The notes: generated by a model from the letters alone, not told the origin. Shown: positions 13,027-52,021, numbered from the stretch's first letter. The stretch is 64,000 nt of DNA from Candidatus Blackallbacteria bacterium (GCA_051715345.1 JBPXJQ010000029.1:37240-101239), one strand, 5' to 3'. Translations and numbers: made by a program.

Positions 13027-15747
13027 ATGAAAACCCCCTATCATCATCTTCCCGTCATCAGGCATGCAGGTCTGTTGGAAGAGCTAAACGGGATCCCCGC
13101 TTATCTCAATCCAGCAGGATATCAGGCTTATGGGACGTCTTTTAGTTGGCCGTTTTACAGCGGCGGCATATCCGGTAATATCGACGTAGTCGAGAGTCTC
13201 AGTGCCTCCGTGGTCGAAGACCTCCCGCAGGGTTGGTATATGCTGCGCACCTATTATTTTGGCCAATTATTGGAGCGCAAAGCACTGCTCAAAGCCAATG
13301 GCAACCTTGAAGTCAGTTCTCCCGGTCCGATCGCAGCCTCCCAGACAGTCATTTTGGCTGAGCTTGAACATGAAGATCTGCGTTATACCGTGATGCTGCG
13401 CGAGACCAGTCAAGGTTGGGTCAACAAAGACGGCAGTGGCCAACAGGTATTTTTGCTCTACCGCAGCATGACCCGCAAACTCGAAAGGGTGATTCGCGAA
13501 AAGATGCCTGAAGAGGGCTTTGCCAAATTGCGGGTCTCTTTGGGTGAGCAGCCCACACTTTTTCCGATGCAACTCTCACCCAGTGTTTTGGATGTCACTG
13601 GTCGCCGTGTCCCCCTGTTTTACAGCGATGCGATTGAACGCTTGGCCGATTTGCTTTTATCTCACCGCCCGCCTTATGGCCGCACTTTGGTCTATGCAGG
13701 GGGCGATCTTGACTATTTTGATCAATTTGCACTGCACGAAGTCTTTCGTCTTTTGGGCGCTCGCAATCTCAGTGGCAGCAGTGAGTTTGGTCTGCGGGCC
13801 GCCGCCAGAACGCTGGAACTCCAGGCCGGTGAAGAATCGCCGATTTTAACTTTGGAACAGGCCCTCGAAGGCCCCAATAGATTGTTCTTGATGTCGGGCT
13901 GGAATGGCTTTGTCTCTCATTTGCCCGTCTTTAACCAATTGGTTTTGCGTGAAGATCTCGACGCCTGGTTGGTCGATGTCTGTGTGACTGAAAGTGCCAA
14001 AATTTTGGCTGCGCGACTGGCGCCTGAACGGGTTTTATTGGTCCGTACGGGTGGCGATGCCCATTTTGCATTGGCTGTGGCCCATGAAATTGTTCACAAT
14101 TATCCCGGTGCTTTGGATCAGGCGTTTATTTCACAGTACTGTGATCGTGAAAGTCTGGAACAATACTTAACCCTGGCCCGCTCGGAATTCTTCCAAATTG
14201 AACGCACTGCAGAAACCATTTCTCCCGATCCGGCTTATACTGATCGGCTGGTGGCGGGGATTCGCGCCATCGCCGCTCGTTTGGTTGAAAGTGAAAGTGT
14301 TCCCGTGCATTTGGCGGGCTCGGGTCTCTCCCAGACGTCCGGGGTCGTCGGCCACGGACTTTGGAACAATCTCCTGGCCATGTTGGGTAAATTTGGTCTG
14401 TCCTCAGAGGGCACTCCCCGTGGAGGTTCTTTGCGCCTGCCTTACCAGCACAACGAGGAGACCCAAGTACAGGGTTTGGCCCAGGATCGTTTCTTTGGCA
14501 ATCTTCCCTTTAACGAAGTGGGGGCAAGAGAGTCCGCCCTGCGTATGGGCCTGCCTGAAAATGCCTATCACCGTCTGCTCAAAGAGCCCATGCGGCCTGT
14601 CTTGGAGTATACGACGCCTACCCAAGCCGGTCAGCGCGAGCTGATTATTTGTATCGGCCAGGGCCTTGAAGGCCAAATGGTTGACAGGGGCCGTTGGAAA
14701 GACAAACTGAGTGCCCCCGAAACCACTTTGGTGGTGATCGATCCCATGCCCGGCCCTTTCTTTTTGCGCCATGCCGCCCTGTGTTTGCCCACTGCCCCCG
14801 AGGTGGCTTCGGCACGGCTGTACCAAAATGGCGAATGGCGCTTGACTCTTGCCTTTCCCCGCCGCACGGCCCCACCCGAGACACGCACGGCTACGACTTT
14901 GCTTTACGACACCATGGCTGAAGTTTCCAGGTCTTTGCGTGAAGAAGAAGATTTTCGCGAGGGCCATCCCGATTTGGCCAGCTATTCAGCCCAGGGCTAT
15001 TTACAATCGCGTTTTGAACCGCCCGAATGGAATTGGGGCGGGGGGCTTGAGCGCATCGATGGCGAAGTCAGCCGCTTTCAACTCTGGGACCGAATCCAGT
15101 CTTATCTCACTGGCACTGAAGAGACCCGGGGCCCACTCTATTGCCGTCCCGAACACAGCGATGGCATGCCGTTAAACTGGGACGAAGTTCTCTCAGCCGG
15201 AAGTTTGATTTATGGCGGGGTCGGCAAAAACCGCCACCGCCAGGGTGGGTGTGAACGCGCACCATTTCAAGACATTTACCGCGAACCCGTGTCCTTTCGC
15301 TTCTTTGTGCCCAAAGAAGGTGATTTGCGCATCCCCAATGGAATTGTACTCAATACGGGCTGTTCAACACTCAGTGACAATGTGGCCTGGATTCGTTTTG
15401 CGATTTCCTCGTTTCATTCCAGCAAGGTGCTTGATTCGCTTGATATGCCCAAACACAAGCCGTTGTTTATCTCACAAACCCTGGCCGATGAAATGGGCTT
15501 TAAAAAAGACCAAAAAGTCAAAGTCAGCAATGTTGAAACGGGCCGCTCTTTGATTCTCAAAGTTGAGCCCACATCACGGCTCAAAGGCCACATGGCCTAT
15601 TTGAGTTATCACCATTCCCATGCCGAAATTCAACAGGATTCTTATATCAATATCCTTTCCTACCGCAGTGTTCGCTGTGCCTATTCGGGACTGCCTTATC
15701 TCAAGTCCACTCTGATTACTCTCGAAGCTTTGCAAGAAGGAGACTGA
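13027..15747 (+). CDS. Molybdopterin (Mo-bisPGD) oxidoreductase-fold protein that lacks the N-terminal Fe-S cysteine motif
   Basis: Central LFLMSGWNGFVSHLP resembles the xWGSNPxxxxP motif. The C-terminal segment PLFISQTLADEMGFKKDQKVKVSNVETGRSLILKVEPTSRLKGHMAYLSYHH follows the Molydop_binding domain pattern (xISPxDAxxLGIxDGDxVxVxSxRGxxxLxAxVT...). The first ~200 aa contain no cysteines and there is no TAT signal. Confidence 0.45.
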   Translation: MKTPYHHLPVIRHAGLLEELNGIPAYLNPAGYQAYGTSFSWPFYSGGISGNIDVVESLSASVVEDLPQGWYMLRTYYFGQLLERKALLKANGNLEVSSPGPIAASQTVILAELEHEDLRYTVMLRETSQGWVNKDGSGQQVFLLYRSMTRKLERVIREKMPEEGFAKLRVSLGEQPTLFPMQLSPSVLDVTGRRVPLFYSDAIERLADLLLSHRPPYGRTLVYAGGDLDYFDQFALHEVFRLLGARNLSGSSEFGLRAAARTLELQAGEESPILTLEQALEGPNRLFLMSGWNGFVSHLPVFNQLVLREDLDAWLVDVCVTESAKILAARLAPERVLLVRTGGDAHFALAVAHEIVHNYPGALDQAFISQYCDRESLEQYLTLARSEFFQIERTAETISPDPAYTDRLVAGIRAIAARLVESESVPVHLAGSGLSQTSGVVGHGLWNNLLAMLGKFGLSSEGTPRGGSLRLPYQHNEETQVQGLAQDRFFGNLPFNEVGARESALRMGLPENAYHRLLKEPMRPVLEYTTPTQAGQRELIICIGQGLEGQMVDRGRWKDKLSAPETTLVVIDPMPGPFFLRHAALCLPTAPEVASARLYQNGEWRLTLAFPRRTAPPETRTATTLLYDTMAEVSRSLREEEDFREGHPDLASYSAQGYLQSRFEPPEWNWGGGLERIDGEVSRFQLWDRIQSYLTGTEETRGPLYCRPEHSDGMPLNWDEVLSAGSLIYGGVGKNRHRQGGCERAPFQDIYREPVSFRFFVPKEGDLRIPNGIVLNTGCSTLSDNVAWIRFAISSFHSSKVLDSLDMPKHKPLFISQTLADEMGFKKDQKVKVSNVETGRSLILKVEPTSRLKGHMAYLSYHHSHAEIQQDSYINILSYRSVRCAYSGLPYLKSTLITLEALQEGD

Positions 15748-15749
15748 TA

Positions 15750-16982
15750 GTGTCGATCTCAGAAGTTCTCAAAAGCGTCCCCTTTTTTGATCATTTTACC
15801 GATACCCAAATTGATGACCTGGTGCATATGGGGCGTCCGCTCCAGACCGAAGCCGATCAAGTGCTCTTTCAGATGGGTGATCTGGCCGACAGCCTCTACG
15901 TCATTCTCAACGGCTCTGTGCGGGTCTATGGCAAAGATCCTGAGGGCAAGCCGGTTGAACTCTCCACCCTGCGCAAGGGGCAGTTTTTTGGGGAGTTGGC
16001 CCTGGTGGATGGTGGCACCCGTTCCGCCACCGTGCGCACAGGCGAACCCTGTGAATTTTTTGTGATTGAGCGCTCCAATTTTATGCGCTTGCTCTCCACC
16101 TCCCCCGAATTGCTCTCGGACGTCTTGGCGGGCATTACCAGCAAAATCAAAAGTTCAAATGAAAAAATCTTTCTCGAAATGTTGGAAAAACAGCGCTTGC
16201 AGTCGCAGATGGAAATTGATCGCCACCGCTCACTCTCTGAGATGGTGGCTGGGGTGGCCCATGAGATCAATACCCCGCTGGGCATTGTCAATGTTACAGC
16301 CAGCATGATCACGGAGAACCTGACCCCCGATCTCTTGGCCCGTGCCACCGATCCCGAACTCAAATATGTGCTCGAAGACATTCAAGAAGCAGCTCAATTA
16401 ATGCTGAGCAACATTGCCCGTGCCAATAAATTGATCCAGAGCTTCAAAAGTGTTTCAGTCAATCAGATTATGGATACCTTGGAAACGGGCCTGTTTGTGC
16501 AATTGGTTCAAGAGGTGATAGACCTGTTTAAAATCAAGGCCCGTCAGGCACACTTGAGCCTGGAAACTGAGTTTGAACCTGGCGTTGAGCATTTGGAATG
16601 GACGGGTTATCCGGGGTATCTGTCTCAAATTCTGATGAATTTTTTCAGCAATATCGAAAGATATGCCTATCCCGCTGGGGTCGGTGGCCGGATTTTGGTC
16701 AAACTCAGCAGTTTTGAACGCGACAATAAGCCTTTTTTCAGGCTTGTGGTGCAAGACTTTGGCAAAGGGATTCCCAAAGAAGATGTTTCCCGTGTCTTTG
16801 ACGTCTTTTTTACCACGGGGCGCGGTCAAGGGGGGACAGGCTTGGGTATGTCGATTGTGCACAATTTGGTTACGTCTGCCCTGCACGGCAGTATTACCCT
16901 CGATTCTGAATTGGGCCAAGGCACCACTGTGACGGTTGAATTTCCCCATCAAATTACCCCGCAGGAACATTTGGCCGGATAA
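15750..16982 (+). CDS. Cyclic-nucleotide-binding sensor histidine kinase (cNMP domain, HisKA, HATPase_c)
   Basis: N-terminal CAP-type cNMP domain (FFGELALVDGGTRSATVRT), H-box VAHEINTPLG and G-box GTGLGMSIV. The GTG start sits directly after the upstream stop (TGATAGTG). Confidence 0.7.
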   Translation: MSISEVLKSVPFFDHFTDTQIDDLVHMGRPLQTEADQVLFQMGDLADSLYVILNGSVRVYGKDPEGKPVELSTLRKGQFFGELALVDGGTRSATVRTGEPCEFFVIERSNFMRLLSTSPELLSDVLAGITSKIKSSNEKIFLEMLEKQRLQSQMEIDRHRSLSEMVAGVAHEINTPLGIVNVTASMITENLTPDLLARATDPELKYVLEDIQEAAQLMLSNIARANKLIQSFKSVSVNQIMDTLETGLFVQLVQEVIDLFKIKARQAHLSLETEFEPGVEHLEWTGYPGYLSQILMNFFSNIERYAYPAGVGGRILVKLSSFERDNKPFFRLVVQDFGKGIPKEDVSRVFDVFFTTGRGQGGTGLGMSIVHNLVTSALHGSITLDSELGQGTTVTVEFPHQITPQEHLAG

Positions 16983-17017
16983 GCGCCATTTGAATCCATA
17001 AGAGCAAGGAGCATCCC

Positions 17018-17944
17018 ATGATTTCATTACCTGAAAATTATTTGATTCTGGTGGTTGACGACGAGCCGGATATGCACTCGCTCAGCCGCCTGAGCTTACG
17101 CAGTTTAAAATACCGCGATCGGGGGGTGGAATTGGCCTTTGCCTCAACAGGTCAGGAAGCGGTTGAATTTATGCGCAGCCGCCCCGATACCGCCGTGATT
17201 CTGCTCGATGTGGTGATGGAAACCCCGACTGCTGGCCTTGATGCCTGTCAGTCGATTCGCCAAGAACTCGGCAACGAATTTGTGCGGATTATTCTGCGCA
17301 CGGGCCAACCAGGGGCCGCCCCCGAAAAGAAAGTGATCGAAGAATATGATATCGACGGCTATTTGGCCAAAGCCGAATTGACAACCAACCGGCTCTATAC
17401 CGCTGTGCGCACGGCCCTGAAAGCCTATGATGAATTGGTTGAATTGCAGCGCCACCGCGAGGTCTTGACCTTTTTGCATGAATCGGTCACCTCTTTGCAT
17501 ACCCTCGAAGCGTTGGAAGAGAGCCTGCAGCGCATTCTCGAAACGGCGGTGATGATTGCCCCCTGTGACTTGGCTGTCTTGAATCTCGAAACTTTTCAAG
17601 AATCTGGAGACTCACGGCGCTATGTCTTGTTTACAGGCACCAATCCCAATTCAGACGAAACCGAAGCTGCCGCCACGGCGATAGTCTCTCAGATTGCCGA
17701 AGACCCCAGCGCGCTGGCGCTCAAAGATGCGGGAATTTTTGGCAATGGTTTCCTCGTGCCTTTGGTCCTGCACAGGGATTTGGGCTATGGCTGGCTCTAT
17801 GTCGAAAACAGCCTCGAAGATCCGCTGATGTACCAAACCCTGCCCATGTTGGCGGCCCATGCTGCCAACGCCCTCTATTCCACGATTGCCCGCGAATTGT
17901 TTTTGGCCCGCAGCGGCACCTTCTTTGCTGAGATCAACGTCTAG
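17018..17944 (+). CDS. Response regulator: receiver domain plus a ~180-aa C-terminal domain of unknown function, GAF-like
   Basis: Receiver signature LVVDDEPDMH...ILLDVVM. RBS AAGGAG at 17004-17009 before ATG 17018. Confidence 0.65.
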   Translation: MISLPENYLILVVDDEPDMHSLSRLSLRSLKYRDRGVELAFASTGQEAVEFMRSRPDTAVILLDVVMETPTAGLDACQSIRQELGNEFVRIILRTGQPGAAPEKKVIEEYDIDGYLAKAELTTNRLYTAVRTALKAYDELVELQRHREVLTFLHESVTSLHTLEALEESLQRILETAVMIAPCDLAVLNLETFQESGDSRRYVLFTGTNPNSDETEAAATAIVSQIAEDPSALALKDAGIFGNGFLVPLVLHRDLGYGWLYVENSLEDPLMYQTLPMLAAHAANALYSTIARELFLARSGTFFAEINV

Positions 17945-19818
17945 CCAGTGCGCTCCAAGGGAATTCGGCTTCCCTGCAGCAAAGCTTGAAAAAATTCGCG
18001 CAGATTGTAGTGCAAAAAGAGTTCTGTCGGGGATTTATGCCCCATCGGGGGTGGGCCTGCGATCAGCTGTTTATAAAACAATTCTTCAAAAATCGAATGG
18101 CTCAGGCCAATTGCTTCGTTAAGTAATTCCAGCGGGAAATCCGCCTGAACCTCTTCGAGATAGGTTCTGAGCAGACTGTGGGCTTCGCGGTAAAAAACGA
18201 CTATTTTGTTTTCTTGGCTCAGCCGCAATTGCAGGGCGATATCTGGCGCGAGATGAGCCCCATCTTTGATTGAATAGAGCAGTGGGTTTTCGTCTTGGCG
18301 GACATACCCGTCTTGCAATTTGTGGGCTGTGATAATCAATGCCTTTTGCAAGGCATCTAAAAGCGGCAACTCTTTGAGGTGCTCAGGAGACATAAAACGC
18401 TCAATTAAACTGCGGTAAGACAGGCCTGTCTGCTGGTGAATTAAAAGCAGGGGCAACTGTAACATTTTGTGGGTATAGACCAAAAAATTGGTGGTCCAGG
18501 CGTAGGCGTGCATTTTGACCCAATCCGCGCGCGAAAGCGTTTTGGTTGCGACAATAATTTCGAGGTATTCATAGATGCCATCGGGCGGCTCTCCGTGGCC
18601 TGGAAAGTGAATTTGGATGCTCTCGAGGCCATAGCGTTCTCGGTAGGCAGGTTGGGCCATCTCAGCATTGGGTAAGATGCTGGCGTTATAACAGATGATT
18701 TTGTTGAATTGCCCGTGGTTCAGCACATCATCGATGGTATTGGCAAAGGAGTCGTAGGTCTCTTCGGGCAGGCCCAGAATAATATCTGTATAGCTAAAAA
18801 TGCCATTGTCGAGGCAGAATTGTTGAATTTCGCGGTAGGCCTGCAGGGAGATGTTTTGCCGGTTGATTGCTTTGAGCACCTCTGGGTGGGTGCTTTGAAC
18901 CGCCAAAGAAGTGACGGAGTTGAGACCTGCATCGGCCAGGATTTTTTGGATTTCAAAATTGCGCTGTTTGACGTTTTTGGCGGTTTGGGTTTGCACGCAT
19001 TGGGGATAACCCGTTTTTTGGCTGACCAAAGCAAAATGCCGTGCCAGTTCAACATCTCTTTCAAAAATACCAAAATTGGCATCTGCGGAAAAAATATTGC
19101 CGACGCGGTTGGCGCCAAACCATTCAATTTCGGCTTTGAGCCGCTCCAAATCATAGCGATAAACCTTGCTCTGGGTTAAAGACCCCCAATCACAAAAACT
19201 GCACGAAAACGGACAGCCCCGATTGCTTTCCCAGGTGCCGACCCATTCTCTGTTGGGCCATTTTTCGAGCAGCGAATCAAAAATGCCACTCAAATAAGGG
19301 GAGGGTATGCTGTCGAGATCCTTGATGCGGGGCCCCGCTGGGTGGGTCTGAAATTTTCCCTGAGGATCGATATAACTGATTCCGGGTATGCTGTGCCAAT
19401 CGTTTTCGGGAAAGGCTTCCAACAGAGCCAGAAAGGTATTTTCCCCTTCACCGTGCGCGCAGACATCGATATAGGGATGGGCCCGCAAAAAAACCTCAGC
19501 CTCGTTGGGGACCTGGGGCCCCCCAAAGAGAATCAAAATCTGAGGATGGCTTAATTTGAGGGATTGTGCCAGTGCCAAGGAGCGTTTGATATTCCAGATA
19601 TAGGTGCTAAATCCAGCAATATCAACCTCTTTGAGGGCCTCTACTCCCTCTGGAATCGAGACCCTGTGGTGCACAGGCGGCAAAAATTGATAGCGTTCTG
19701 GCGCACTCGCCCAGCGTTGGGCATAGGCCTGTAAAAGTCCCACCGAATAGGGAAAATAATAGTGCTCACCGCGCTGTTCGCTGATCTGTACCAGACCGAC
19801 CCGGACGTGATCCTTCAT
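17941..19818 (-). CDS. B12-binding-domain radical SAM enzyme (class B rSAM with DUF4070-like C-terminus)
   Basis: Radical SAM cluster motif CPFSCSFCDW (CxxxCxxC), preceded by a B12-binding-like N-terminal domain. 625 aa. Confidence 0.65.
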   Translation of the reverse strand: MKDHVRVGLVQISEQRGEHYYFPYSVGLLQAYAQRWASAPERYQFLPPVHHRVSIPEGVEALKEVDIAGFSTYIWNIKRSLALAQSLKLSHPQILILFGGPQVPNEAEVFLRAHPYIDVCAHGEGENTFLALLEAFPENDWHSIPGISYIDPQGKFQTHPAGPRIKDLDSIPSPYLSGIFDSLLEKWPNREWVGTWESNRGCPFSCSFCDWGSLTQSKVYRYDLERLKAEIEWFGANRVGNIFSADANFGIFERDVELARHFALVSQKTGYPQCVQTQTAKNVKQRNFEIQKILADAGLNSVTSLAVQSTHPEVLKAINRQNISLQAYREIQQFCLDNGIFSYTDIILGLPEETYDSFANTIDDVLNHGQFNKIICYNASILPNAEMAQPAYRERYGLESIQIHFPGHGEPPDGIYEYLEIIVATKTLSRADWVKMHAYAWTTNFLVYTHKMLQLPLLLIHQQTGLSYRSLIERFMSPEHLKELPLLDALQKALIITAHKLQDGYVRQDENPLLYSIKDGAHLAPDIALQLRLSQENKIVVFYREAHSLLRTYLEEVQADFPLELLNEAIGLSHSIFEELFYKQLIAGPPPMGHKSPTELFLHYNLREFFQALLQGSRIPLERTG

Positions 19819-19908
19819 CGTATCCTGTTTTCCTGCTGATAGGAGCTTGTCTTTAGAACATCATACCACTTGAGCAAACTCACCCGAATGAACCCACCCG
19901 AATTATCC

Positions 19909-21051
19909 TCACTCAAGACTTTCGCTCTGAATCTCCAGCTCATAAGGCAGATTGACATAAGCAGCAACATCTTCCACGGCCCTGAGCAGAGCTTCGTTTT
20001 CTGACTCGGTAAGCCTTTCAAACGGGAAAATCTGGATCTGCACGTTTTTTCGCTTGATTTGACGCTTCCAAACTCCCTTCACCAGCCCATCGATTAAAAA
20101 GACGGGATGAAACACCCCGTTTTTGCCCGGAATGACTCTATGCGCAAAGTGAGGATCCAAGACGGAATCCCGATCTTGGTAGCCAATCAGGTATTCATCA
20201 AAAGCGGGCAAGAGACAGGCTTGGGGCGAAGCGACAGGCCTCATTTTGGCGGAGGGAGCAAAAAACCAATGGGTGTTGTCTGCCCAGAGCTCACAGCTCA
20301 ATTCATTTTTGATCTCAGACAGGCCTTGTTTGGCTTGGGTCAAGCTGAGACCGGTCCAACGGGCCAAATCTTGAACGGTCGCAGGTCCATGGCCCGAGAA
20401 ATAGAGGCGTGTGATCTCAGCCAAAGCCGCTTCAGATGTGAGCCTGGTTTGCGGGGGGCAAAACGATTCCAACAGGGCAAAACTGGGTTGTTTGCCGACC
20501 GGGGGGCCCTGGCAGATCAGGCCTGTTTGGGCATGATACCCAAGCAGATGATAGCCGCGCTGAGAATGCGTGGCAATACCGATTTTTTCAAAAGCGGCCA
20601 GGATTTCTGGGCGCGAGAGCCAAGCGTTCTCTGCCAATAATTCACGCAGGCAGTTGCCGGTCAGCTTGAGTATTTCCGGGCTGATTTCCAATTGCCTGAG
20701 CCGTCCGGCAGATGCCGACAAAATCCGGGGTGTCATCAAAGCCAACATCCAACTGAGGTCACTGCCAGGAACCCAATGTAAGGTGCCGCGCATCGGCCAA
20801 GAGCGAACAATCTCGCCTTTGGCAATGGCCTGATTCAGGGCTGTGCGGCGGTCTTGCCCCTGCTTGATGCTATGTTTTAAATTGAGGCGCAGGGCCAAAG
20901 CCCAGAGGGAGTTTTCATACTCTTGGGCCTGGACTGCGCCGAGGCCTGTGAGCACATCCAAGGGAGAGTCAAACTGGGCGCTTGTTTTCAGTCCCAAATT
21001 GTGCAAACGCAGTTCCAGGGCCCAGCTGGGCATGTCCGTGCGGGCCTTCAT
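19909..21051 (-). CDS. Winged-helix YcaQ/AlkZ-family (HTH_42) DNA glycosylase-like protein
   Basis: N-terminal LGAVQAQEY carries the Q-hydrophobic-Q catalytic motif of the AlkZ/YcaQ family. Length about 380 aa. Start overlaps the upstream stop by 4 nt (ATGA). Confidence 0.5.
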   Translation of the reverse strand: MKARTDMPSWALELRLHNLGLKTSAQFDSPLDVLTGLGAVQAQEYENSLWALALRLNLKHSIKQGQDRRTALNQAIAKGEIVRSWPMRGTLHWVPGSDLSWMLALMTPRILSASAGRLRQLEISPEILKLTGNCLRELLAENAWLSRPEILAAFEKIGIATHSQRGYHLLGYHAQTGLICQGPPVGKQPSFALLESFCPPQTRLTSEAALAEITRLYFSGHGPATVQDLARWTGLSLTQAKQGLSEIKNELSCELWADNTHWFFAPSAKMRPVASPQACLLPAFDEYLIGYQDRDSVLDPHFAHRVIPGKNGVFHPVFLIDGLVKGVWKRQIKRKNVQIQIFPFERLTESENEALLRAVEDVAAYVNLPYELEIQSESLE

Positions 21052-21623
21052 TTTTGCAAGGCCTTTTCAATTCGCCGGTCGGGCACGAGCCAGATCAAGG
21101 CCACCAGGGCATACAGGGCCCAGGCCAGCCAGGTCTGTACAAAAGCCAGGCCGATGGCCAAGGCATACAAAAGTGGCGAAATCTTGCCTTTCATATCGTC
21201 TCCCAAGGCCCGTTTAAGCAGAGATTGTGAGCCCTGACTGCGAATGATCGCGCCTTGCAAGAGAAAATAGGCAATGGCTGCCAACAGCAGTACACCGCCA
21301 TAGAGGGCGGTTGGCAGAGGGGCAAAGGGGTTTTCCCCCATCCAATGGGTCACAAACGGCACCAAAGAAAGCCAAAAGAGCAGGTGTAAATTGGCCCACA
21401 ACATGCTGCCCGTGACATGTTCAGTGACATGCAACATGTGGTGGTGGTTGTTCCAGTAAATGCCCAAATAAATGTAGCTGAGCACATAACTCAAAAAAAC
21501 GGGAATCATGGGCTGAAGTGTGTTTAAGTCAACACCGTGGGGAACCTTTAGCTCCAATACCATAATGGTAATTAAGATCGCGATTACACCATCGCTGAAA
21601 GCTTCTAAACGGCTGGTTTTCAT
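21048..21623 (-). CDS. TMEM175/DUF1211-family membrane protein, putative K+ channel
   Basis: Signature RLEAFSDGVIAILITIMVLEL at the N-terminus. Start placed at the ATG of MKTSRLEAF (21621-21623) with an AAAGGA RBS upstream, rather than at ORF start 21725. Confidence 0.6.
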   Translation of the reverse strand: MKTSRLEAFSDGVIAILITIMVLELKVPHGVDLNTLQPMIPVFLSYVLSYIYLGIYWNNHHHMLHVTEHVTGSMLWANLHLLFWLSLVPFVTHWMGENPFAPLPTALYGGVLLLAAIAYFLLQGAIIRSQGSQSLLKRALGDDMKGKISPLLYALAIGLAFVQTWLAWALYALVALIWLVPDRRIEKALQK

Positions 21624-21666
21624 GGCAGGGATCCTTTGCAATTCTGTATTATAACAGCCTGAATAA

Positions 21667-21692
21667 TAGACAGTCTGCTTTGATAGACAGTA
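21667..21692. promoter_or_regulatory. Two copies of ATAGACAGT spaced 17 bp apart, in the divergent TMEM175/NAD-kinase intergenic region
   Basis: Direct repeats at 21667-21675 and 21684-21692. Possible response-regulator-type operator. Confidence 0.25.
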
Positions 21693-21873
21693 TTCTGGGC
21701 TGTGAGAGGCATTCTCGTAGCCCAAGTCTGGCTGTGGCTGGATCAGGTATGTTATGATTTGGTACGTTGATCACACCTTGCCCGTATCAATCCCGTATCA
21801 ATCTTGGTGCCAAAACGGGCCACACAGACCCTTAAACATAATAGGACAAAGAAGCAGGAGAATCCAACGCGCC

Positions 21874-22740
21874 ATGGCCGTTCCCGCGATTGGGATCATT
21901 TACAATCTCTACAAAACCTACCGCTGCGACACCCAGCATATTGCCCAGGAAGTGGCCCAGTGGTTGTCTGCACGTGGCGAAAATGTCTATGTCTTTGCCT
22001 CTCATTATGATTCCAATGAGGCCTTTGAAAAGGATACCAGCGACGTTCGCCTAAAAATGGCTTTGGTGCTCGGCGGTGATGGGACCGTTCTTTACGCTGC
22101 CCGTCTCTTGGCCCCACACGGGGTGCCCCTTTTGTGCGTCAATGCGGGCTCACTCGGATTTATTTCCGAAACGGCTCTCGAAGATCTCTATCCTGCCCTT
22201 GAAAAACTCTTGGCAGGCGAATATGTGATTCAAGAGCGCTCAATGATGCAAATTGAGGTGCTCGACGAAAATTACCAACCGCGCCTGGTCTTTCATGCCC
22301 TCAATGATGCCGCAATCATGCGCCACCCCCTTTCGTACATTATCGAACTGGCCACCTATGTCGATGGCGAATTTGTCACGACCTACCGCGCCGATGGTCT
22401 GATTATTGCCTCCGCTACGGGTTCGACGGCCTATTCCCTTAGCTCCGGTGGGCCGATCATGTTGCCCGATGTCTCGGCGTATATTATCAATCCGATTTGT
22501 CCACACGCCTTGTTTAACCGCTCGGTTGTGATTCCCGAGTGGAAAGAGACCACCGTCAAGGTCCTGCTGCGTGAGCCCACCCAAGAGGTGCTGATCACCA
22601 TCGACGGGCAGGCCCATTTGGCTTTGCACCACCGCGATATTGTCAAAATCAGCCGCTCCTTTTACAAAACCCGCTTGGTCAAGTTTCAGAAAAACGACTT
22701 TTTCCACATTATGCGCCAGAAGCTTTTCTTGGGGCGCTAA
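21874..22740 (+). CDS. nadK: NAD kinase
   Basis: GGDGTVLYAARL motif and NAD-kinase architecture. ATG 21874 follows an AGGAG RBS. The longer ORF from 21754 is rejected. Confidence 0.8.
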   Translation: MAVPAIGIIYNLYKTYRCDTQHIAQEVAQWLSARGENVYVFASHYDSNEAFEKDTSDVRLKMALVLGGDGTVLYAARLLAPHGVPLLCVNAGSLGFISETALEDLYPALEKLLAGEYVIQERSMMQIEVLDENYQPRLVFHALNDAAIMRHPLSYIIELATYVDGEFVTTYRADGLIIASATGSTAYSLSSGGPIMLPDVSAYIINPICPHALFNRSVVIPEWKETTVKVLLREPTQEVLITIDGQAHLALHHRDIVKISRSFYKTRLVKFQKNDFFHIMRQKLFLGR

Positions 22741-37613: not shown

Positions 37614-38512
37614 TGTCTGAACCTATTTCTCTCTACCATGGCCATTTTTTCAATCGCAATGGCCTCAAATACCATTATCTCGATCAAGGCCAAGGTGACC
37701 CTGTGGTCATGGTGCATGGCAATCCAACCTGGTCTGTCTATTACCGCAATCTGGTCAAGGCCCTGAGCCCCCAGTTTCGCTGCATTGTGCCTGATCATAT
37801 TGGCTGTGGCTATTCGGATAAGCCCGATGACAGCCAGTATAATTACACCCTCGGCAGCCGGATTGACGATTTGGAAGCGCTTTTGAATCACCTGGGGGTC
37901 AACAAAAATGTGACCCTGGTTGTGCATGATTGGGGCGGTTTAATCGGTCTGGGCTGGGCCCTGCGCCACATGGATGCAGTCAAACGCCTGGTGATATTTA
38001 ATACTGCCGCTTTTCATCTGCCCAATACCAAACGCCAGATTCCCTGGCAATTGGCACTGGGCCGTCAAACCCGATTGGGTGCTTGGCTGATCGAAAACCT
38101 CAATGCCTTCAGTGTGGCGGCGTCTTGGGTGGGTTGTACCGAACACCCGATGTCGGCCAAATTGCGTAAAATTTACCAATCTCCTTATAACACCAAAGCC
38201 AATCGGATTGCCACCTTGCGCTTTGTACAAGATATTCCGCTGCACCCGGAGGATCCCGCTTTTGCCTTGGTCTCTGAAGTCGAAGACAATCTTGAACGCT
38301 TCCGCCATCTGCCCACTTTGATCTGCTGGGGCTTAAAAGACTTTGTCTTTGACGGTGCTTTTCTCAAGGTTTTTGAAGACAAATTGCCCCAGGCTGAAGT
38401 CCATCGCTTTGAACAAGCGGGCCATTATGTTCTTGAAGACAGGGCGGCTGAAATTGTGCCCTTGGTGCAGGCTTTTATGGGCCAAAAGGCCCCAGAACCC
38501 GTACTTTCATGA
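37613..38512 (+). CDS. oleB: Haloalkane-dehalogenase-like alpha/beta hydrolase, OleB-like
   Basis: HGNPTWSVYYRNL and the Asp nucleophile elbow VHDWGGLIGLGWA. It sits directly upstream of the OleC and OleD homologues. Confidence 0.55.
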   Translation: MSEPISLYHGHFFNRNGLKYHYLDQGQGDPVVMVHGNPTWSVYYRNLVKALSPQFRCIVPDHIGCGYSDKPDDSQYNYTLGSRIDDLEALLNHLGVNKNVTLVVHDWGGLIGLGWALRHMDAVKRLVIFNTAAFHLPNTKRQIPWQLALGRQTRLGAWLIENLNAFSVAASWVGCTEHPMSAKLRKIYQSPYNTKANRIATLRFVQDIPLHPEDPAFALVSEVEDNLERFRHLPTLICWGLKDFVFDGAFLKVFEDKLPQAEVHRFEQAGHYVLEDRAAEIVPLVQAFMGQKAPEPVLS

Positions 38513-38522
38513 AGGCCTTGAT

Positions 38523-40205
38523 ATGACTGCGGTACTTTCGGCTCCTGCCAATATCGCCTCTGCGCTCTATGCTTCTTACAAGACCCAACCGCAGGCCACA
38601 GCGATTATTCTGGCACAGAAACCCGATCGAAAGGGCCGTTTGTCGTATACCCACTACAGCTTTGAGACCCTGGTCAAGGAGACCGAGGTGCTGGCTGCTG
38701 GACTCAAAAATAAGGGGATTGTCCGTGGCATGCGCACCGTCTTGATGGTGCCTCCCAGTCTGGAATTCTTTGCCCTGATGTTTGCCATGTTAAAATCCGG
38801 GATCGTGCCCGTATTGATTGATCCTGGCATGGGCCTCGACAATCTTAAAACCTGTCTGCAAGAGGCTCAACCAGAGGCGTTTGTGGGGGTGACCAAGGCC
38901 CATCTGGCACGCAAAATCTTGGGCTGGGGCAAAGACACAGTCAAAATCAACGTAACTCTCGGGCCCAAACTCTTTTGGGGCGGTTCTACTTTAAATGAGC
39001 TGCGGCGCTTTGGCCAAAAATCGCCGCTAACAGGCGTGGCTGATACCCGCCCTGAAGAGCTGGCGGCGATCCTCTTTACCAGCGGCAGCACAGGCGTTCC
39101 CAAAGGCGTCGTCTATCAGCATTTGCAATTCTTGGCCCAAATTGAAAGGATCCGTGAAACCTATCAGGTTCAACCCGGAGAGGTTGATTTGGCCACGTTC
39201 CCGCCTTTTGCCCTGTTTGACCCCGCTTTGGGTATGACCTCGGTGATACCCTGGATGGATCCCACCAAACCGGCCTTGGTCAACCCTGAGTATATTTTTG
39301 ACGCGATTGAACGCTTTCAGGTCACTCATATGTTCGGCTCGCCCGCATTGCTCAATCGCATTAGCCGCGCTGGCCAAGCAAAACAGATCCATTTGCCTTC
39401 GCTGCGCAGAGTGCTCTCTGCTGGCGCACCCGTTCCCTGGCAGACTCTCGAACGCATGCAGTCCTTGTTAACTGCAGAAGCCCAAATTTATACGCCCTAT
39501 GGCGCAACCGAATGTCTGCCTGTGGCCAGTATTAGCAGCCGCGAAATTCTGAGCGAAACCCAGCTTTTAACCCGTGAGGGCAAAGGGGTTTGCATTGGTA
39601 AAGCCGTAAACGGGGTCGAAGTGGTGATCATCCCCATTACTGATACACCGATAGCCGAATGGGATGACTCCCTGGTTTTGCCCGTGGGTGAATTAGGGGA
39701 AATTGTCGTCAAAGGCGATAACGTGACCACCGCTTATTTTAACCGCCAGGCCTCAACTGATTTGGCAAAAATTGCCGACAGTGATGGCGGCGTGCGCCAC
39801 CGCATGGGCGATTTGGGGTACATCGATGCCCAAGGGCGGATTTGGTTCTGCGGCCGAAAATCCCACCGCGTGATTACAGCACAAGAAACACTTTTCACCA
39901 TTCCCTGTGAGGCGATCTTTAATACCCATCCCGATGTCTATCGCACGGGTTTGGTGGGTGTGGGCGAACCTGGTCAAATTCAGCCCGTGGTCTGTGTCGA
40001 ACTCGAAAAAAATCCCGGCCAATCGCCGAATCAGATCATTCTCGATTTACAAGACTTGGCCCAAAAATATCCACATACCCGCGCAATTCGGCATTTTTTA
40101 ATTCACCCGGCATTGCCTGTGGATATCCGCCACAACTCCAAGATCTTTCGCGAAAAATTGGTCCCCTGGGCCACAGAGAAATTGGCTTTGGGGGTTGCAA
40201 ATTGA
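38523..40205 (+). CDS. oleC: AMP-dependent synthetase/ligase, OleC-like (beta-lactone synthetase family)
   Basis: ILFTSGSTGVPKGVV, TPYGATECLP, HRMGDLGYIDAQGRIWFCGRK and FLIHPALPVDIRHNSKIFREKL resemble OleC. The B-C-D gene order supports the call. Confidence 0.6.
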   Translation: MTAVLSAPANIASALYASYKTQPQATAIILAQKPDRKGRLSYTHYSFETLVKETEVLAAGLKNKGIVRGMRTVLMVPPSLEFFALMFAMLKSGIVPVLIDPGMGLDNLKTCLQEAQPEAFVGVTKAHLARKILGWGKDTVKINVTLGPKLFWGGSTLNELRRFGQKSPLTGVADTRPEELAAILFTSGSTGVPKGVVYQHLQFLAQIERIRETYQVQPGEVDLATFPPFALFDPALGMTSVIPWMDPTKPALVNPEYIFDAIERFQVTHMFGSPALLNRISRAGQAKQIHLPSLRRVLSAGAPVPWQTLERMQSLLTAEAQIYTPYGATECLPVASISSREILSETQLLTREGKGVCIGKAVNGVEVVIIPITDTPIAEWDDSLVLPVGELGEIVVKGDNVTTAYFNRQASTDLAKIADSDGGVRHRMGDLGYIDAQGRIWFCGRKSHRVITAQETLFTIPCEAIFNTHPDVYRTGLVGVGEPGQIQPVVCVELEKNPGQSPNQIILDLQDLAQKYPHTRAIRHFLIHPALPVDIRHNSKIFREKLVPWATEKLALGVAN

Positions 40206-47583: not shown

Positions 47584-48522
47584 ATGTCAGAGATGTTGGC
47601 TTTAATCAAAGAAAAGGGTGAAGTTCAGCTGCGAACGACCCGTCGGCCCACCTGTGATGCCTCTAATCACGTCCTGATACGCGTTAAGATGGCGGGGATC
47701 TGTCGCACAGATTTGGCTGTGATGCGTTCCCAATTGGCCACCCCCGAGCCCCTGATCGTGGGCCATGAATTTGCAGGGGAAATTGTAGAAATCGGAGATC
47801 AGGTTCACTCTCTTCAAGTGGGAATGTCCGTGACTGCAATGCCGCTCTTGCCCTGCGGTCTCTGTTCGGCCTGTGTGGAAAAACGGACTGAAAGCTGTTA
47901 CTGCGGCAAGATGTTGGGGCTGCATGTTTCAGGGGCTTTTGCTGAATTTGTCTGTCTACCCGCTGAACAGGTCTATGCATTGCCTCAACACTGGCCTACT
48001 GCCTTGAGTTGGGAGACGGCAGCCTTCAGCGAACCCGTTGCCGCCGCTGCTGCCATTCTCAAAGCGGATATTCACCCCAAGCTGCAGGGCGCAATTGTGG
48101 GACAGGGCCGAATTGCCGAATTGAGCTTGCGGCTCTTAAACAGTCAGGGTTTTGAACGGATCGAAATGTATGCCCAACCCCAAGATTTACCCAGCAATGG
48201 CTTTGATTGGTTGATCGAAACAGGGCTCCGTGCCGCATGTGTCAATCCCCTGCTCACAGCCTTGCGTCCGAGGGGCCTGCTTTTGCTCAAATCGCGGCAT
48301 TTGCCCACTTTGCAATTTGATCCCCAACTTTTGATTTGCAAAGAAATCCGATTACAAGGCGTCTATTATGCGGCTTTTCCTTGGGTGTTGAAGTGGTTGG
48401 CTGAAAACGCAGAGCGCGTACAGGATTTATTTGGTCCGGTATATCCTGCTCAGTCCTGGCAAAGCGCTTTAGAAGCCGCTGAATCGGGGGAATCACTCAA
48501 AATCTTTTTAAGTTGGCCCTAG
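47584..48522 (+). CDS. Zn-dependent medium-chain dehydrogenase, threonine-dehydrogenase/ADH-like
   Basis: GICRTDLAVM...GHEFAGEIVEIGDQV catalytic-zinc signature. First gene of the coupled five-gene operon. Confidence 0.7.
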   Translation: MSEMLALIKEKGEVQLRTTRRPTCDASNHVLIRVKMAGICRTDLAVMRSQLATPEPLIVGHEFAGEIVEIGDQVHSLQVGMSVTAMPLLPCGLCSACVEKRTESCYCGKMLGLHVSGAFAEFVCLPAEQVYALPQHWPTALSWETAAFSEPVAAAAAILKADIHPKLQGAIVGQGRIAELSLRLLNSQGFERIEMYAQPQDLPSNGFDWLIETGLRAACVNPLLTALRPRGLLLLKSRHLPTLQFDPQLLICKEIRLQGVYYAAFPWVLKWLAENAERVQDLFGPVYPAQSWQSALEAAESGESLKIFLSWP

Positions 48523-48524
48523 CG

Positions 48525-50399
48525 ATGTGTGGGGTAATTGCCGTGATCGGCAACGAAACCATTTCGATCAACCAACTTGCAGCAGGCGTCGATGCCTTGG
48601 CCAGCCGTGGACCCGATGGTAAGGGCCTGTGGCGTTCAGAGAATCAACGTGTGGGTTTGGGCCATGCCCGACTTGCCACCCGCGATCTGTCAGGCGGGCA
48701 GCAGCCCCTGCATTGTTCCCAACGCCAATTGAGTGGGGTTTTTAACGGTGAATTTTATGGGGTAGAGCCCTTGCGCGCAGACTTGGTAAAAAAGAGGTAT
48801 CATTTTTTTACCAATTCAGACAGTGAAGTTGCGCTTTATCTCTATGCAGAATACGGTTTGGATTGCCTGCGTTTTTTGCGCGGAGAATTTGCAATGATTC
48901 TCTGGGATGACCAAAAACAGGAATTGATCGCACTGCGCGATCGCTTTGGCATCAAACCGCTGTTTTTTTCCAGGCAAGCAGATACTTTGCTCTTGGCTTC
49001 TAAGGCTTCTGCCCTCTGGGCGATGGGCGTTTCACCCGCTTGGGATCTGAATGGCCTGGCCCAAATTTGCAGTTTTCAATACCCTTTGCCTGAACAATCG
49101 CTTTTTGCAAATATTCAGACTTTGCCACCGGGCCACGGTTTGCGTTGGCGTTCAGGTCAACTTGAGTTGTTTTGTTATTGGGATCTGGACTATCCCGAGG
49201 CCAAAGACCTTCGGCCCGAGTCAGAATCCCGTTTGATTCCCGAATTACAATCTGCAATCCAGACTGCGGTTGAACTGCGCAGAGTGGCAGACCTGCCCAT
49301 TTGCTCATATCTCAGTGCGGGCCTGGACTCCAGTTTGATCACTTCTTTGCTCAATCAAGTGGCACCGTCTCCTGCTTTTTGTGTGGGTTTTCCTGGTTGG
49401 GAGGGCGACGAAGGTCCTTTGGCTCAAATCACGGCAGATGCCTTGGGGATTCAGTTACATACCCTGCAACTCGATTTTTCCACGCTTCAGCAGGCCCTGC
49501 TTGAGACCATTCGCGTGACCGAAGGACCCTGTATCAACCCCCATGTGGTTGCCCGCCGTTTGCTTTGTCAAAAGATCCGTGCGGCGGGATTCAAAGTCGT
49601 CTTAACAGGGGAAGGGGCAGATGAACTTTTTGGTGGCTACGCCCATCTGCTCGAAGATCTGTATCCCGGTGGGGATCGCCACGCAGGCTTGGTGGGCATG
49701 CATTTGCCTTTGGGGTCGGAGCCAGACCTCTCACTTTTAGAGCGCGAATGGGGACACATTCCCACCTTTATTCAGGCCAAAGCGTCACTGTGTCTACGCT
49801 TGCGCAGTTTGCTCAATCCCGATTTTCGCTCGGCATTTCCTTTCCCAGAGATGCAAATGCGGCTCTTGGCCGCTTTTCCTTCACAGGTACTGGAGGGGCG
49901 TCATCCACTTCACCGTTCGCTCTATCTCTGGAACAAGCTGGGTTTGGCTGGGTATATCTTGCCCACCGTCGGAGATGGGGCTGAAATGGCAGAAGGCCTG
50001 GAAGGGCGTTTGCCTTTTCTTGATCATCTGCTTTTTGAACGGGTGCGAGGCTTGCCCCCAGAACAGCTGATGGCCCCTGGCCTGGAAAAAGCCCTGTTAC
50101 GCAAATTGGCCCAACCCTGGCTGCCACAATCTGTATTAAATCGCCCCAAAGCACCTTTTTTGGCGCCCTCACTTTTGTCCCACAGATTGCAGGCTGAACC
50201 TGAATCCCACCCAACCACGCAAGCGGCTTTTTTTCCAGAGCCCTTGCCGGATTTTGTCGATCGCTCCGCTTTGGCTCAACGTTTACGTTGGTTGGCTTAC
50301 GCTCCGTCAGAAGAACATCAGAGCTGGGAGCCCCCCTTGCTGCTCTTGTCCTCGCTGTGTCAAATGCATCAACTTTTTTTCTCAAACAAGGAGTTATAA
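48525..50399 (+). CDS. Asparagine-synthetase-B-family glutamine-dependent amidotransferase
   Basis: N-terminal MCGV (Cys nucleophile). Class II GATase residues HARLATRD, NGEFYG, SDSEV, GEFAMILWD. PP-loop SYLSAGLDSS. 628 aa, longer than AsnB. Confidence 0.75.
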   Translation: MCGVIAVIGNETISINQLAAGVDALASRGPDGKGLWRSENQRVGLGHARLATRDLSGGQQPLHCSQRQLSGVFNGEFYGVEPLRADLVKKRYHFFTNSDSEVALYLYAEYGLDCLRFLRGEFAMILWDDQKQELIALRDRFGIKPLFFSRQADTLLLASKASALWAMGVSPAWDLNGLAQICSFQYPLPEQSLFANIQTLPPGHGLRWRSGQLELFCYWDLDYPEAKDLRPESESRLIPELQSAIQTAVELRRVADLPICSYLSAGLDSSLITSLLNQVAPSPAFCVGFPGWEGDEGPLAQITADALGIQLHTLQLDFSTLQQALLETIRVTEGPCINPHVVARRLLCQKIRAAGFKVVLTGEGADELFGGYAHLLEDLYPGGDRHAGLVGMHLPLGSEPDLSLLEREWGHIPTFIQAKASLCLRLRSLLNPDFRSAFPFPEMQMRLLAAFPSQVLEGRHPLHRSLYLWNKLGLAGYILPTVGDGAEMAEGLEGRLPFLDHLLFERVRGLPPEQLMAPGLEKALLRKLAQPWLPQSVLNRPKAPFLAPSLLSHRLQAEPESHPTTQAAFFPEPLPDFVDRSALAQRLRWLAYAPSEEHQSWEPPLLLLSSLCQMHQLFFSNKEL

Positions 50400-51170
50400 A
50401 TGAGCCAAGCCACTCCCTGGTGGGAGACCTTTTACTCCCATCACTATGCCGAAGCGATGTTTCAATTGGATCGCGATTATCTCAACGCTGCCTGTGAATT
50501 CATTCTCGATAAACTGCAATTGCAGTCAGGACAAACGGTCTTGGATCAGTGTTGTGGGATCGGCAATATCAGCCTTTTGCTGGGCGAAAGGGGCCTTTCT
50601 GTGACAGGCATCGAGCAAAGCCTGAGCTATGTGCGACAGGCCCAAGAGCGCGCCCGCTTGGGAGATTTGGACCAATGCCAATTTATCGCAGCAGATGCTT
50701 TCAGCTATGTCTCGCCCGCCCCACTGGATGCCGCTTTTAATTGGCACACCAGTTTTGGCTATACCTCAGATGACCGCCAAAACAGGCGCATGTTGGAAAT
50801 GGCCTATGCTTCGCTCAAACCCGGAGGTTATTTTCTCTTGGATTATCTGAACCTGCCCTATGTTTTCAAACATTTCCGCGCTACCATGATTACCTATCAT
50901 CAGACCCAAGAAGGAGATGTAGAGGTGATTCGGGAATCCAGCCCCGATCTGGTCTCTGGGATGTTGAACCAACTTTGGACCTTCGTCTATCCTAATGCAG
51001 AGCGTCGTCTGGTACAACAGACGGGTACACGCATGTATTTGCCCTATCAATTGGGGGAGCTGCTCAAGCAAAGTGGTTTTGAGCTGATTGACTATTTTGG
51101 TAGTTTAGCGGGTGACCCCCTCTCAATTGACACTTCCCGCTGTATTTGCTTGGCCCGGCGGCCTGTGTGA
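50400..51170 (+). CDS. Class I SAM-dependent methyltransferase
   Basis: Motif I VLDQCCGIGNISL. Starts immediately after the AsnB-like stop. Confidence 0.7.
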   Translation: MSQATPWWETFYSHHYAEAMFQLDRDYLNAACEFILDKLQLQSGQTVLDQCCGIGNISLLLGERGLSVTGIEQSLSYVRQAQERARLGDLDQCQFIAADAFSYVSPAPLDAAFNWHTSFGYTSDDRQNRRMLEMAYASLKPGGYFLLDYLNLPYVFKHFRATMITYHQTQEGDVEVIRESSPDLVSGMLNQLWTFVYPNAERRLVQQTGTRMYLPYQLGELLKQSGFELIDYFGSLAGDPLSIDTSRCICLARRPV

Positions 51171-52021
51171 GCGCATTGCTGAAAGCGAACTTACCCCCAA
51201 GCCACGGTTCGATTCTGTTGCAGCCGGAAGCCTTTTACCGGGGTGAACTGGCCTTACTTACGGCCACATCCGCGACTGTGAAATTGGTTCAGGGGCTTCA
51301 CCAGCGACTCCACCAAGCCCTTCTTCCAGCCCCTACTTTTGCCACGGCTCATCACATTTTAGCCAGTGAGCTCTTGCGCCACCGTCTCCATCATTTGCGC
51401 AGGCAACTTTACACAGATAAGGCTGTTTTAAAGACTTTGGCTGCAATTGTATCTGAATTGGTTGAGGAACTGAGTTGGCCTGAGTTGCCTGCTGTGGATT
51501 TGCCCCGCCTTCGGGCAATCGTCCCGCAGATGCATCAAATACCGGCCGCTGCAGACGCCTTTTCGGCCCACCGCGATACCTGGTATGCCAATCCTGCAGC
51601 CCAGATCAACCTATGGATTCCCTTGGGGGATTATTCTTCCTCCCAGACTTTTGTCTTTTATCCAGCCTGCTTTTCTCGCCCTGTTGAAAATAATTCTGAG
51701 AGCTTTGACTACGAACAGTGGCAGGCCACCGTCGGTTGGCAAAGCTTGCAAAAACCTGAGTCAGCCATTTATCCCCAGGCCTTGGATGTGCCAATTGTGG
51801 AGCCGCTGGGATTTGCCTGTGAAGCTGGACAGCGGCTTTTGTTTTCGGGCTCACACCTGCATCAGCCTTTGCCAAATAACAGCAACCAAATTCGCTTTAG
51901 CCTCGATATGCGTTTGGTGTGTCGGCGCGATTTTGCCGAACAGCGCGGTGCTCCTCAAATAGATAATCGCTCCAAAGGCAGTACCTGGCCTGAATTTGTT
52001 CCACTGGAGGCTTGGCAATGA
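51146..52021 (+). CDS. PhyH-family Fe(II)/2-oxoglutarate dioxygenase-like protein
   Basis: AHRDTWY (HxD) ... NLWIPLGD ... GSHLHQ pattern typical of the phytanoyl-CoA-dioxygenase family. TTG start overlaps the methyltransferase end. The stop overlaps the next ATG (ATGA). Confidence 0.5.
   Translation: MLGPAACVSALLKANLPPSHGSILLQPEAFYRGELALLTATSATVKLVQGLHQRLHQALLPAPTFATAHHILASELLRHRLHHLRRQLYTDKAVLKTLAAIVSELVEELSWPELPAVDLPRLRAIVPQMHQIPAAADAFSAHRDTWYANPAAQINLWIPLGDYSSSQTFVFYPACFSRPVENNSESFDYEQWQATVGWQSLQKPESAIYPQALDVPIVEPLGFACEAGQRLLFSGSHLHQPLPNNSNQIRFSLDMRLVCRRDFAEQRGAPQIDNRSKGSTWPEFVPLEAWQ

Follow-up and report, generated by a model that had tools for sequence, protein, structure and literature searches.

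DNA glycosylases of the AlkZ/YcaQ superfamily are sorted into subfamilies by their catalytic motif. The YcaQ-like (YQL) proteins carry Q-aliphatic-D, the AZL proteins (Q/H)-aliphatic-Q and the AZL2 proteins H-aliphatic-(S/T)(D/E) (PMC9040887). In the YQL proteins, both the sequence and the gene neighbourhood are highly conserved. The AZL proteins are variable in sequence as well as in neighbourhood, and they are fast-evolving yet active (PMC9040887). Their genes often lie no more than 5 genes or 2 kb from a cluster for genotoxin biosynthesis, a position that is typical, not obligatory; the subfamily is enriched in such clusters, though most AZL genes sit outside of them (PMC9040887). Here, a locus is described in which the gene of an AZL-type glycosylase stands between the gene of a TMEM175-family (DUF1211) cation channel and the gene of a cobalamin-dependent (class B) radical S-adenosylmethionine (SAM) enzyme that resembles TokK, CysS and KedN5. 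The locus lies in a 64-kb stretch of DNA, hereafter the window, from Candidatus Blackallbacteria bacterium (GCA_051715345.1, JBPXJQ010000029.1:37240-101239). The closest homologues of its genes carry the source name Candidatus Sericytochromatia, which assigns the organism to this group.

The locus is read here as the lineage-specific juxtaposition of two units, with a probability of about 0.75. The first unit would be a bicistron of the TMEM175 and AZL genes. The second would be a separately promoted, TokK/CysS-like cobalamin methylase gene, which has a convergent signalling block as its stable partner. The arrangement is an ordinary lineage-specific gene neighbourhood and not a new functional system. 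Three consecutive open reading frames (ORFs) occupy the minus strand at 21048..21725, 19909..21051 and 17941..19818, and contain the motifs RLEAFSDG, VQAQEY and CPFSCSFCDW. The first is the channel gene, the second encodes the glycosylase (380 aa) and the third the radical SAM enzyme (625 aa). The stop codon of TMEM175 and the start codon of the AlkZ-like gene overlap as ATGA at 21048–21051, and exactly 90 nt (19819–19908) separate the AlkZ stop from the radical SAM start. An earlier note on this DNA had described the three minus-strand genes in series, the ATGA overlap and the 90-bp gap before a 625-aa radical SAM gene, and all of these were found as described.

The reading as two units depends primarily on the distribution of the three genes in related genomes. 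The full trio is present in close relatives, where the glycosylase is 77–84% identical to that of the window. The same relatives keep the whole neighbourhood, with the NAD kinase gene on one side and the genes of a response regulator, a histidine kinase binding cyclic nucleotide monophosphates (cNMP) and a 906-aa protein on the other. Such conservation is genus-level synteny and is uninformative on function. In L007, one of the relatives' loci (all numbered with L), the glycosylase is 66% identical and the order is NAD kinase<>AlkZ>rSAM (rSAM, radical SAM gene), without TMEM175. The radical SAM orthologues in L089 (75% identity) and L090 (67%) have neither AlkZ nor TMEM175, and their upstream genes are unrelated, namely DUF2196 and GFO_IDH genes in one and hemerythrin and Ser/Thr kinase genes in the other. 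Both partners are also absent beside the 53% identical homologue in L091, and the AlkZ gene with 46% identity in another Sericytochromatia metagenome-assembled genome (MAG) stands alone.

Wider surveys gave the same picture. In species-representative genomes, searched with tblastn and profiles, AlkZ or TMEM175 accompanies the radical SAM family at 3 of 80 loci, all three from the same clade, and neither gene was found at the other 77. The complete set of radical SAM-centred loci numbers 83, of which 72 have at least 2 kb of upstream sequence, and 3 of the 83 carry AlkZ or TMEM175. Among 80 AlkZ-centred metagenome loci (35–46% identity), an adjacent TMEM175 was found at 0/80 and a TokK-like radical SAM gene at 0/80. 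The earlier note had listed synteny in related genomes among its checks and a linkage unconserved in relatives as part of what would refute the operon; the linkage turned out to be confined to one genus-level Sericytochromatia clade.

Two loci that resembled second occurrences of the pairings were rejected. In L132, the only other locus of the 80 with TMEM175 near an AlkZ gene, the two genes are 1.3 kb apart and an IS200-like ORF and an SDR ORF lie between them. The order within L132 (2503–6182) is a DinB_2 gene, the AlkZ homologue, an IS200-like fragment, a short SDR ORF and a TMEM175 gene whose product is 59% identical to that of the window. In L113, the candidate for a second pair of AlkZ and a B12-dependent radical SAM gene, the neighbour is the divergently oriented gene of the hopanoid-associated enzyme HpnJ, which belongs to a different family. 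This contig (1–1981) holds an AlkZ homologue (~39% identity) head to head with the N-terminal half of HpnJ, and ends inside the HpnJ gene.

The distribution bears directly on the alternative of a three-gene functional operon. In such an operon, the glycosylase would guard against, or cooperate with, the product of the radical SAM enzyme, as a genotoxin/self-resistance pair or a DNA-modification/repair pair, and the channel would be an accessory. This idea draws on the common strand and tight spacing of the genes (4-nt overlap, 90-nt gap), on a spacer without a terminator and on the AlkZ–radical SAM adjacency kept in L007. It also draws on the AZL-type motif, together with the enrichment of AZL genes in genotoxin clusters (PMC9040887), and on the natural-product tailoring role of TokK, CysS and KedN5, the closest relatives of the radical SAM enzyme. 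Nevertheless, the functional link of three genes fails because the linkage is unconserved outside one genus-level clade: the 75% and 67% identical radical SAM orthologues lack both AlkZ and TMEM175, and the pairing is absent from 77 other radical SAM-family and 80 AlkZ loci. The missing conservation already largely refutes the functional operon, and, with the further evidence given below, it is rated as very improbable.

The relation between the channel and glycosylase genes is best seen upstream of TMEM175. An extended −10 promoter-like element, TGTTATAAT, is located on the minus strand at 21648..21656, about 25 nt upstream of the TMEM175 ATG. It lies inside the block CTG.TATAATACA.AA, which is invariant in the window and in L002, L003, L005, L006 and L007. 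This block is the only conserved intergenic one upstream of TMEM175; the 5′ untranslated region (5′UTR) follows downstream of the element, and the sequence upstream of the block is unalignable between relatives. From this pattern we infer that TGTTATAAT acts as the TMEM175 promoter.

In L007, the shared promoter and 5′UTR are followed by ATG AAA ACC AGC CGC ACA GAG ATG CCC (L007 2105–2360 compared with window positions 21600–21880 and 21010–21070). The AlkZ start of L007 therefore consists of TMEM175 codons 1–4 (MKTS), which run in frame into AlkZ from its codon 4, the junction lying at a CCG microhomology. The distant TMEM175 of L132 starts with M-x-x-x-R-LEAFSDG, and MKTSR is therefore taken as native to the channel. 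The simplest reading is that TMEM175 was lost in the L007 lineage by an in-frame deletion. By synonymous divergence (dS) at the NAD kinase gene and at the N-terminus of the radical SAM gene, L007 is nearer to the window than is L005, which has TMEM175, and this order favours loss over insertion. As the fused gene stands behind the TMEM175 promoter-like element, L007 indicates that AlkZ is expressed from the putative promoter upstream of TMEM175, and TMEM175 and AlkZ are thus probably a co-transcribed bicistron. The same deletion indicates that TMEM175 is dispensable for the downstream genes. On this reading, L007 illustrates how an in-frame deletion can hand the promoter and start codon of one gene over to its neighbour.

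In the proposed first unit, transcription would begin at the TGTTATAAT promoter and pass through the channel gene to the AZL glycosylase gene, the start codon of which overlaps the stop of the channel gene as ATGA. As an AZL enzyme encoded on the chromosome and outside of any cluster, the glycosylase most likely excises N7-alkylpurine lesions that are bulky or form crosslinks. The shared, conserved promoter-like element and the ATGA overlap would also suit a functional stress module, in which TMEM175 and AlkZ are co-expressed because DNA damage arises together with ionic or acid stress. Such a module has a parallel in AlkX, the YcaQ-like protein of Acinetobacter baumannii, which is acid-induced and protective at acidic pH (PMC11228520), and the conductance of human TMEM175 is described as pH-regulated (PMC8956256). 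Against the module, L007 dropped TMEM175 and kept AlkZ behind the same promoter-like element. Moreover, TMEM175 is adjacent to AlkZ at none of the 80 AlkZ-centred loci and nearby at only one, the interrupted case of L132, and the constraint on TMEM175 and AlkZ is very different. The stress module is therefore considered unlikely. Further-reaching would be the proposal that the bicistron is a real coupling of a cation/proton channel with a crosslink/alkylation glycosylase, as a DNA-protecting ionic/acid-stress module like AlkX, and the odds of this are put lower again. If true, the coupling of channel and glycosylase would be the first functional context for bacterial TMEM175 channels. To our knowledge, the physiological role of bacterial TMEM175 members is not established.

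The second unit of the preferred two-unit reading starts in the spacer between AlkZ and the radical SAM gene. This spacer contains the extended −10 promoter-like element TGGTATGATGTT on the minus strand (19857..19868), 41 nt before the radical SAM ATG. The element is exact in 10/10 loci of the clade, L007 included. It belongs to 14 consecutive invariant spacer columns (TGGTATGATGTTCT), and the rest of the spacer is variable and indel-rich. The radical SAM orthologues without AlkZ carry TGTTATGAT (L089) or TGGTATAGT (L090) upstream. Because of the invariant element, a separate extended −10 promoter (TGGTATGAT) within the 90-nt spacer probably serves the radical SAM gene, which is a further argument against the functional operon. 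In this second unit, the radical SAM gene would be transcribed from the TGGTATGAT promoter, with read-through from AlkZ possible, and its product would probably methylate an unactivated carbon by means of methylcobalamin and a 5′-deoxyadenosyl radical. The three-gene operon of the earlier note is thus upheld in one part: co-transcription of TMEM175 and AlkZ is supported by the ATGA overlap, the shared promoter-like element and L007, but the functional link of all three genes is unsupported and the radical SAM gene has a promoter-like element of its own.

The conserved genomic partner of the radical SAM gene is the convergent block, not AlkZ. This block, defined by domain searches and synteny, is located on the plus strand at 13027..17944 and encodes the 906-aa protein, the cNMP-binding histidine kinase and the response regulator. 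The stop codon of the regulator gene overlaps that of the radical SAM gene by 4 nt, and this arrangement is kept in every orthologue down to 67% identity. Beside the orthologues of L089 and L090, the block is kept at 72–92% identity. The response regulator has a DUF3369-like C-terminus, and the 906-aa protein is weakly NapA/molybdopterin-oxidoreductase-like (E about 0.003–0.007). The N-terminal cNMP-binding domain of the kinase (15750–16982) gives weak PADLOC matches to Pycsar effector models (3e-11), a generic similarity to cyclic-nucleotide-binding proteins outside any defence-system context.

Several observations weigh against the separation into two units. A pattern scan of the AlkZ–radical SAM spacer found no terminator-like site, and the predicted hairpin of this spacer is not more stable than those of shuffled sequences (z = −0.58) and partly depends on a 14-nt duplication specific to the window. 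As no intrinsic terminator lies between AlkZ and the radical SAM gene, a three-gene transcript may well exist beside one specific to the radical SAM gene. Both promoters were called solely by conservation and fit to the consensus. That L007 underwent a deletion and not an insertion is a conclusion drawn from the chimeric start and the dS values of two of three genes. L007 is the most diverged locus of the clade and still has AlkZ next to the radical SAM gene, an adjacency that hence has been stable for some time (dS about 0.6–1.0). Finally, only 37 of the 80 AlkZ-centred loci have at least 2 kb of downstream sequence, and many are short. The 14-nt duplication (ATTCGGGTG...) itself, at 19881–19908, is found in the genome of the window only.

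The selective regimes of the three genes are also in agreement with the two-unit reading. In comparisons with four relatives carrying the full trio, dS of AlkZ is 0.31–0.75 and is similar to that of the flanking genes. These values lead to the conclusion that AlkZ was inherited vertically together with them; allelic replacement or horizontal transfer as the source of AlkZ divergence was rejected on the same ground. The nonsynonymous divergence (dN) of AlkZ is ~5–40 times that of the flanking genes. With L007, which lacks TMEM175, included, the dN/dS of AlkZ is 0.19–0.35 and its dS reaches 0.98. The ratio is 0.04–0.06 for the full-length radical SAM gene, 0.02–0.06 for TMEM175 and 0.003–0.14 for the other neighbours. 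The difference extends to the proteins, with amino-acid identities of 66–84% for AlkZ vs 93–99.7% for the products of the flanking genes (window compared with L002, L003, L005, L007 and L010).

Constraint on the glycosylase is thus markedly weaker than on its neighbours, in line with the published description of AZL proteins (PMC9040887), and the glycosylase and the two flanking genes follow quite different selective regimes. For a functional operon, the gap between the dN/dS values of the radical SAM gene and AlkZ is a further difficulty, and the locus offers a clean natural example of adjacent genes with differing selective regimes. The excess of dN at equal dS, and the 77–84% identity of AlkZ in the full-trio relatives vs 93–99.7% for its neighbours, may suggest that the AlkZ-like gene is a decaying or non-functional relic carried between two constrained genes. 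This explanation is held to be quite unlikely, as the dN/dS remains clearly under 1, every relative has an intact ORF, the catalytic residues Q41 and Q43 and ~65 other positions are invariant across phyla, and AZL proteins are known to evolve fast while remaining active (PMC9040887).

The family of the glycosylase is well defined by its sequence. The protein matches PF06224 (HTH_42) with an E-value of 1.7e-58 and 199.3 bits, against a cut-off of 25.9, over profile positions 3–328 of 329. Its sole match among solved structures is AlkZ (5UUJ, 3e-17), and the QAQ of the query falls on the QAQ of AlkZ. Across 16 aligned homologues from several phyla, Q41, A42 and Q43 do not vary, and the ~65 further invariant positions were counted in the same alignment. 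The QAQ motif fits (Q/H)-aliphatic-Q, and the glycosylase is therefore AZL by its catalytic motif; it differs from the YQL proteins in having QAQ instead of Q-x-D and in the variability of its sequence and neighbourhood. The assignment of the earlier note to an AlkZ/YcaQ-like family with a QxQ motif is borne out and narrowed to AZL, and the alignment found the catalytic residues, the lack of which it had named as a possible refutation, to be conserved. The protein is ~45% identical to a large group from Chloroflexota, Sericytochromatia and Firmicutes. A QAQ-bearing, AZL-type clade is widespread outside Actinobacteria, in Sericytochromatia, Chloroflexota, Firmicutes and Saccharibacteria, and outside biosynthetic clusters. 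It extends the survey of AZL and YQL proteins, which was confined to Streptomyces.

The radical SAM enzyme combines two Pfam domains, Radical_SAM (PF04055, 4.4e-14, 53.4 bits vs a gathering score of 29.5) and B12-binding (PF02310, 2.4e-9, 37.5 bits vs 32.1). The cysteines of its CxxxCxxC motif, C202, C206 and C209, are invariant in 18 homologues. Its best relatives of solved structure are TokK (7KDX, 1.4e-92, residues 18–528, 314 bits) and CysS (9N1B, 1.7e-59, 205 bits). The best NCBIfam model is that of the KedN5 family (NF033712, residues 63–446), and since the score of 281.6 bits falls below the curated cut-off of 700, the enzyme is a relative, not a member, of this family. The earlier note had left it to a profile search to decide between a methylase and another class B enzyme, and the matches to TokK, CysS and KedN5 settle the choice in favour of the methyltransferase type. 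At gathering thresholds, an Rfam scan of the whole window gave no match, and thus no cobalamin or other riboswitch near the radical SAM gene. PADLOC returned a generic similarity of B12-dependent radical SAM proteins to the candidate model PDC-M51A, besides the cNMP-domain matches, and no defence-system architecture.

The enzyme belongs to a family with 589 confirmed loci in species-representative genomes. The family proteins have ~620–690 aa, with several paralogues per Sericytochromatia genome. At least five occur in one Sericytochromatia MAG (MAG_89, contigs JADMKE010000017, 19, 20, 24 and 58), and three copies lie within one locus in L033 and in L037. The family is also distributed through Alphaproteobacteria, Elusimicrobiota, Omnitrophota, Planctomycetota, Nitrospirota and Cyanobacteria. 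Its commonest neighbours in other phyla are genes of NAD-dependent epimerases, aldo/keto reductases, transketolase-like proteins, GHMP kinases, DegT aminotransferases and nucleotidyltransferase/HAD fusions. These neighbours point to nucleotide-sugar or heptose-type clusters as the usual setting outside Sericytochromatia, not to genotoxin chemistry, and this also stands against the functional operon. Taken together, the TokK/CysS-like cobalamin radical SAM enzymes make up a large family, rich in paralogues in Sericytochromatia and in many other phyla and often encoded in nucleotide-sugar clusters.

The channel gene was recognized by the earlier note as TMEM175/DUF1211, and this identity agrees with the Pfam match (PF06736, 3.3e-30, 104.9 bits vs a gathering score of 25) and with the alignment to a solved structure. 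The best such structure is that of CmTMEM175 (5VRE, 4.5e-17, residues 2–177), and the RLEAFSD of the window protein, on the first transmembrane helix (TM1), aligns with RIEAFSD of CmTMEM175. The reading frame is open from a TTG and would give 225 aa (21048..21725). The real start is most likely the ATG at 21623, giving a protein of 191 aa (21048..21623). This start is preferred because the relatives were all called at 191 aa and the sequence upstream of the ATG is without in-frame conservation.

Two direct repeats of ATAGACAGT are located at 21666–21674 and 21683–21691, roughly over the −35 and −50 regions of the putative TMEM175 promoter. The earlier note had pointed them out, and both are present. 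ATAGACAGT occurs in exactly 2 copies in the window, whose first bases are 17 nt apart and which leave 8 nt between them. A role as an operator was rejected, as L003 has the repeats in degenerate form and L002, L005, L006 and L007, which all keep the −10 block, lack them, and as close 9-mer repeat pairs are frequent in the window. The window contains 21 such pairs vs 4.2 ± 1.8 in shuffled sequences, and several of them are evident small tandem duplications in intergenic DNA. The ATAGACAGT pair is most likely due to chance, or else a small duplication specific to the strain. A duplication of 11–12 nt (GATTGATACGG) is also present between the NAD kinase gene and TMEM175, at 21781–21803, and is shared with L003 only.

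The wider surroundings are relevant to the genotoxin question. The neighbours encode a T2SS-E ATPase, a NadR-like AAA protein, a DAO oxidoreductase, a CAAX protease, NAD kinase, YgaP-like, Crp, HI0933-like, GH31 and TPR proteins, RecJ and the two-component system. No biosynthetic genes were found within ~15 kb on either side of the trio, which is counted as a further point against the functional operon. The earlier note had hinted at a link with genotoxin biosynthesis, and core biosynthetic genes (polyketide synthase (PKS), non-ribosomal peptide synthetase (NRPS) and the like) are absent beside the glycosylase. A remnant of an enediyne or other genotoxin cluster, a candidate prompted by the similarity to KedN5, was rejected: the window has no PKS or NRPS besides two AMP-binding genes 17–31 kb away. 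At 38343–40205 and 48513–54933, the window encodes an AMP-binding enzyme, an asparagine synthase and a 973-aa protein with AMP-binding and NAD_binding_4 domains, the last being of the carboxylate-reductase or NRPS-like terminal reductase type. These genes may form a small biosynthetic locus, which at 17–31 kb is too far off to count as associated.

The three proteins can each be set beside a described system. The channel resembles CmTMEM175, the K+ channel of Chamaesiphon minutus (5VRE), in being a single six-helix repeat of ~190–200 aa, in the RxEAFSDG motif on TM1 and in the near full-length alignment. The similarity to CmTMEM175 amounts to only 66 bits. The radical SAM enzyme shares the N-terminal B12-binding domain and the CxxxCxxC core with TokK/ThnK (carbapenem C6 alkylation), CysS (cystobactamid) and KedN5 (kedarcidin). 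Unlike these enzymes, it is encoded outside a natural-product cluster and belongs to a large family with multiple paralogues.

The glycosylase has two points of reference. With AlkZ of Streptomyces sahachiroi and the AZL proteins (PMC9040887; 5UUJ), it shares the full-length PF06224 domain, the aligned QAQ and the fast evolution. AlkZ itself is only distantly related to the window protein (66 bits). In contrast to AlkZ, the gene of the window is not in or beside a biosynthetic cluster and is putatively co-transcribed with a channel gene. Escherichia coli YcaQ and A. baumannii AlkX (PMC7367128, PMC11228520) are YQL proteins with Q-aliphatic-D, unlike the Q-A-Q of the window protein. They nevertheless belong to the same superfamily and are likewise chromosomal and located outside of clusters, and the glycosylase gene resembles ycaQ in being embedded in a putative operon with functionally unrelated genes.

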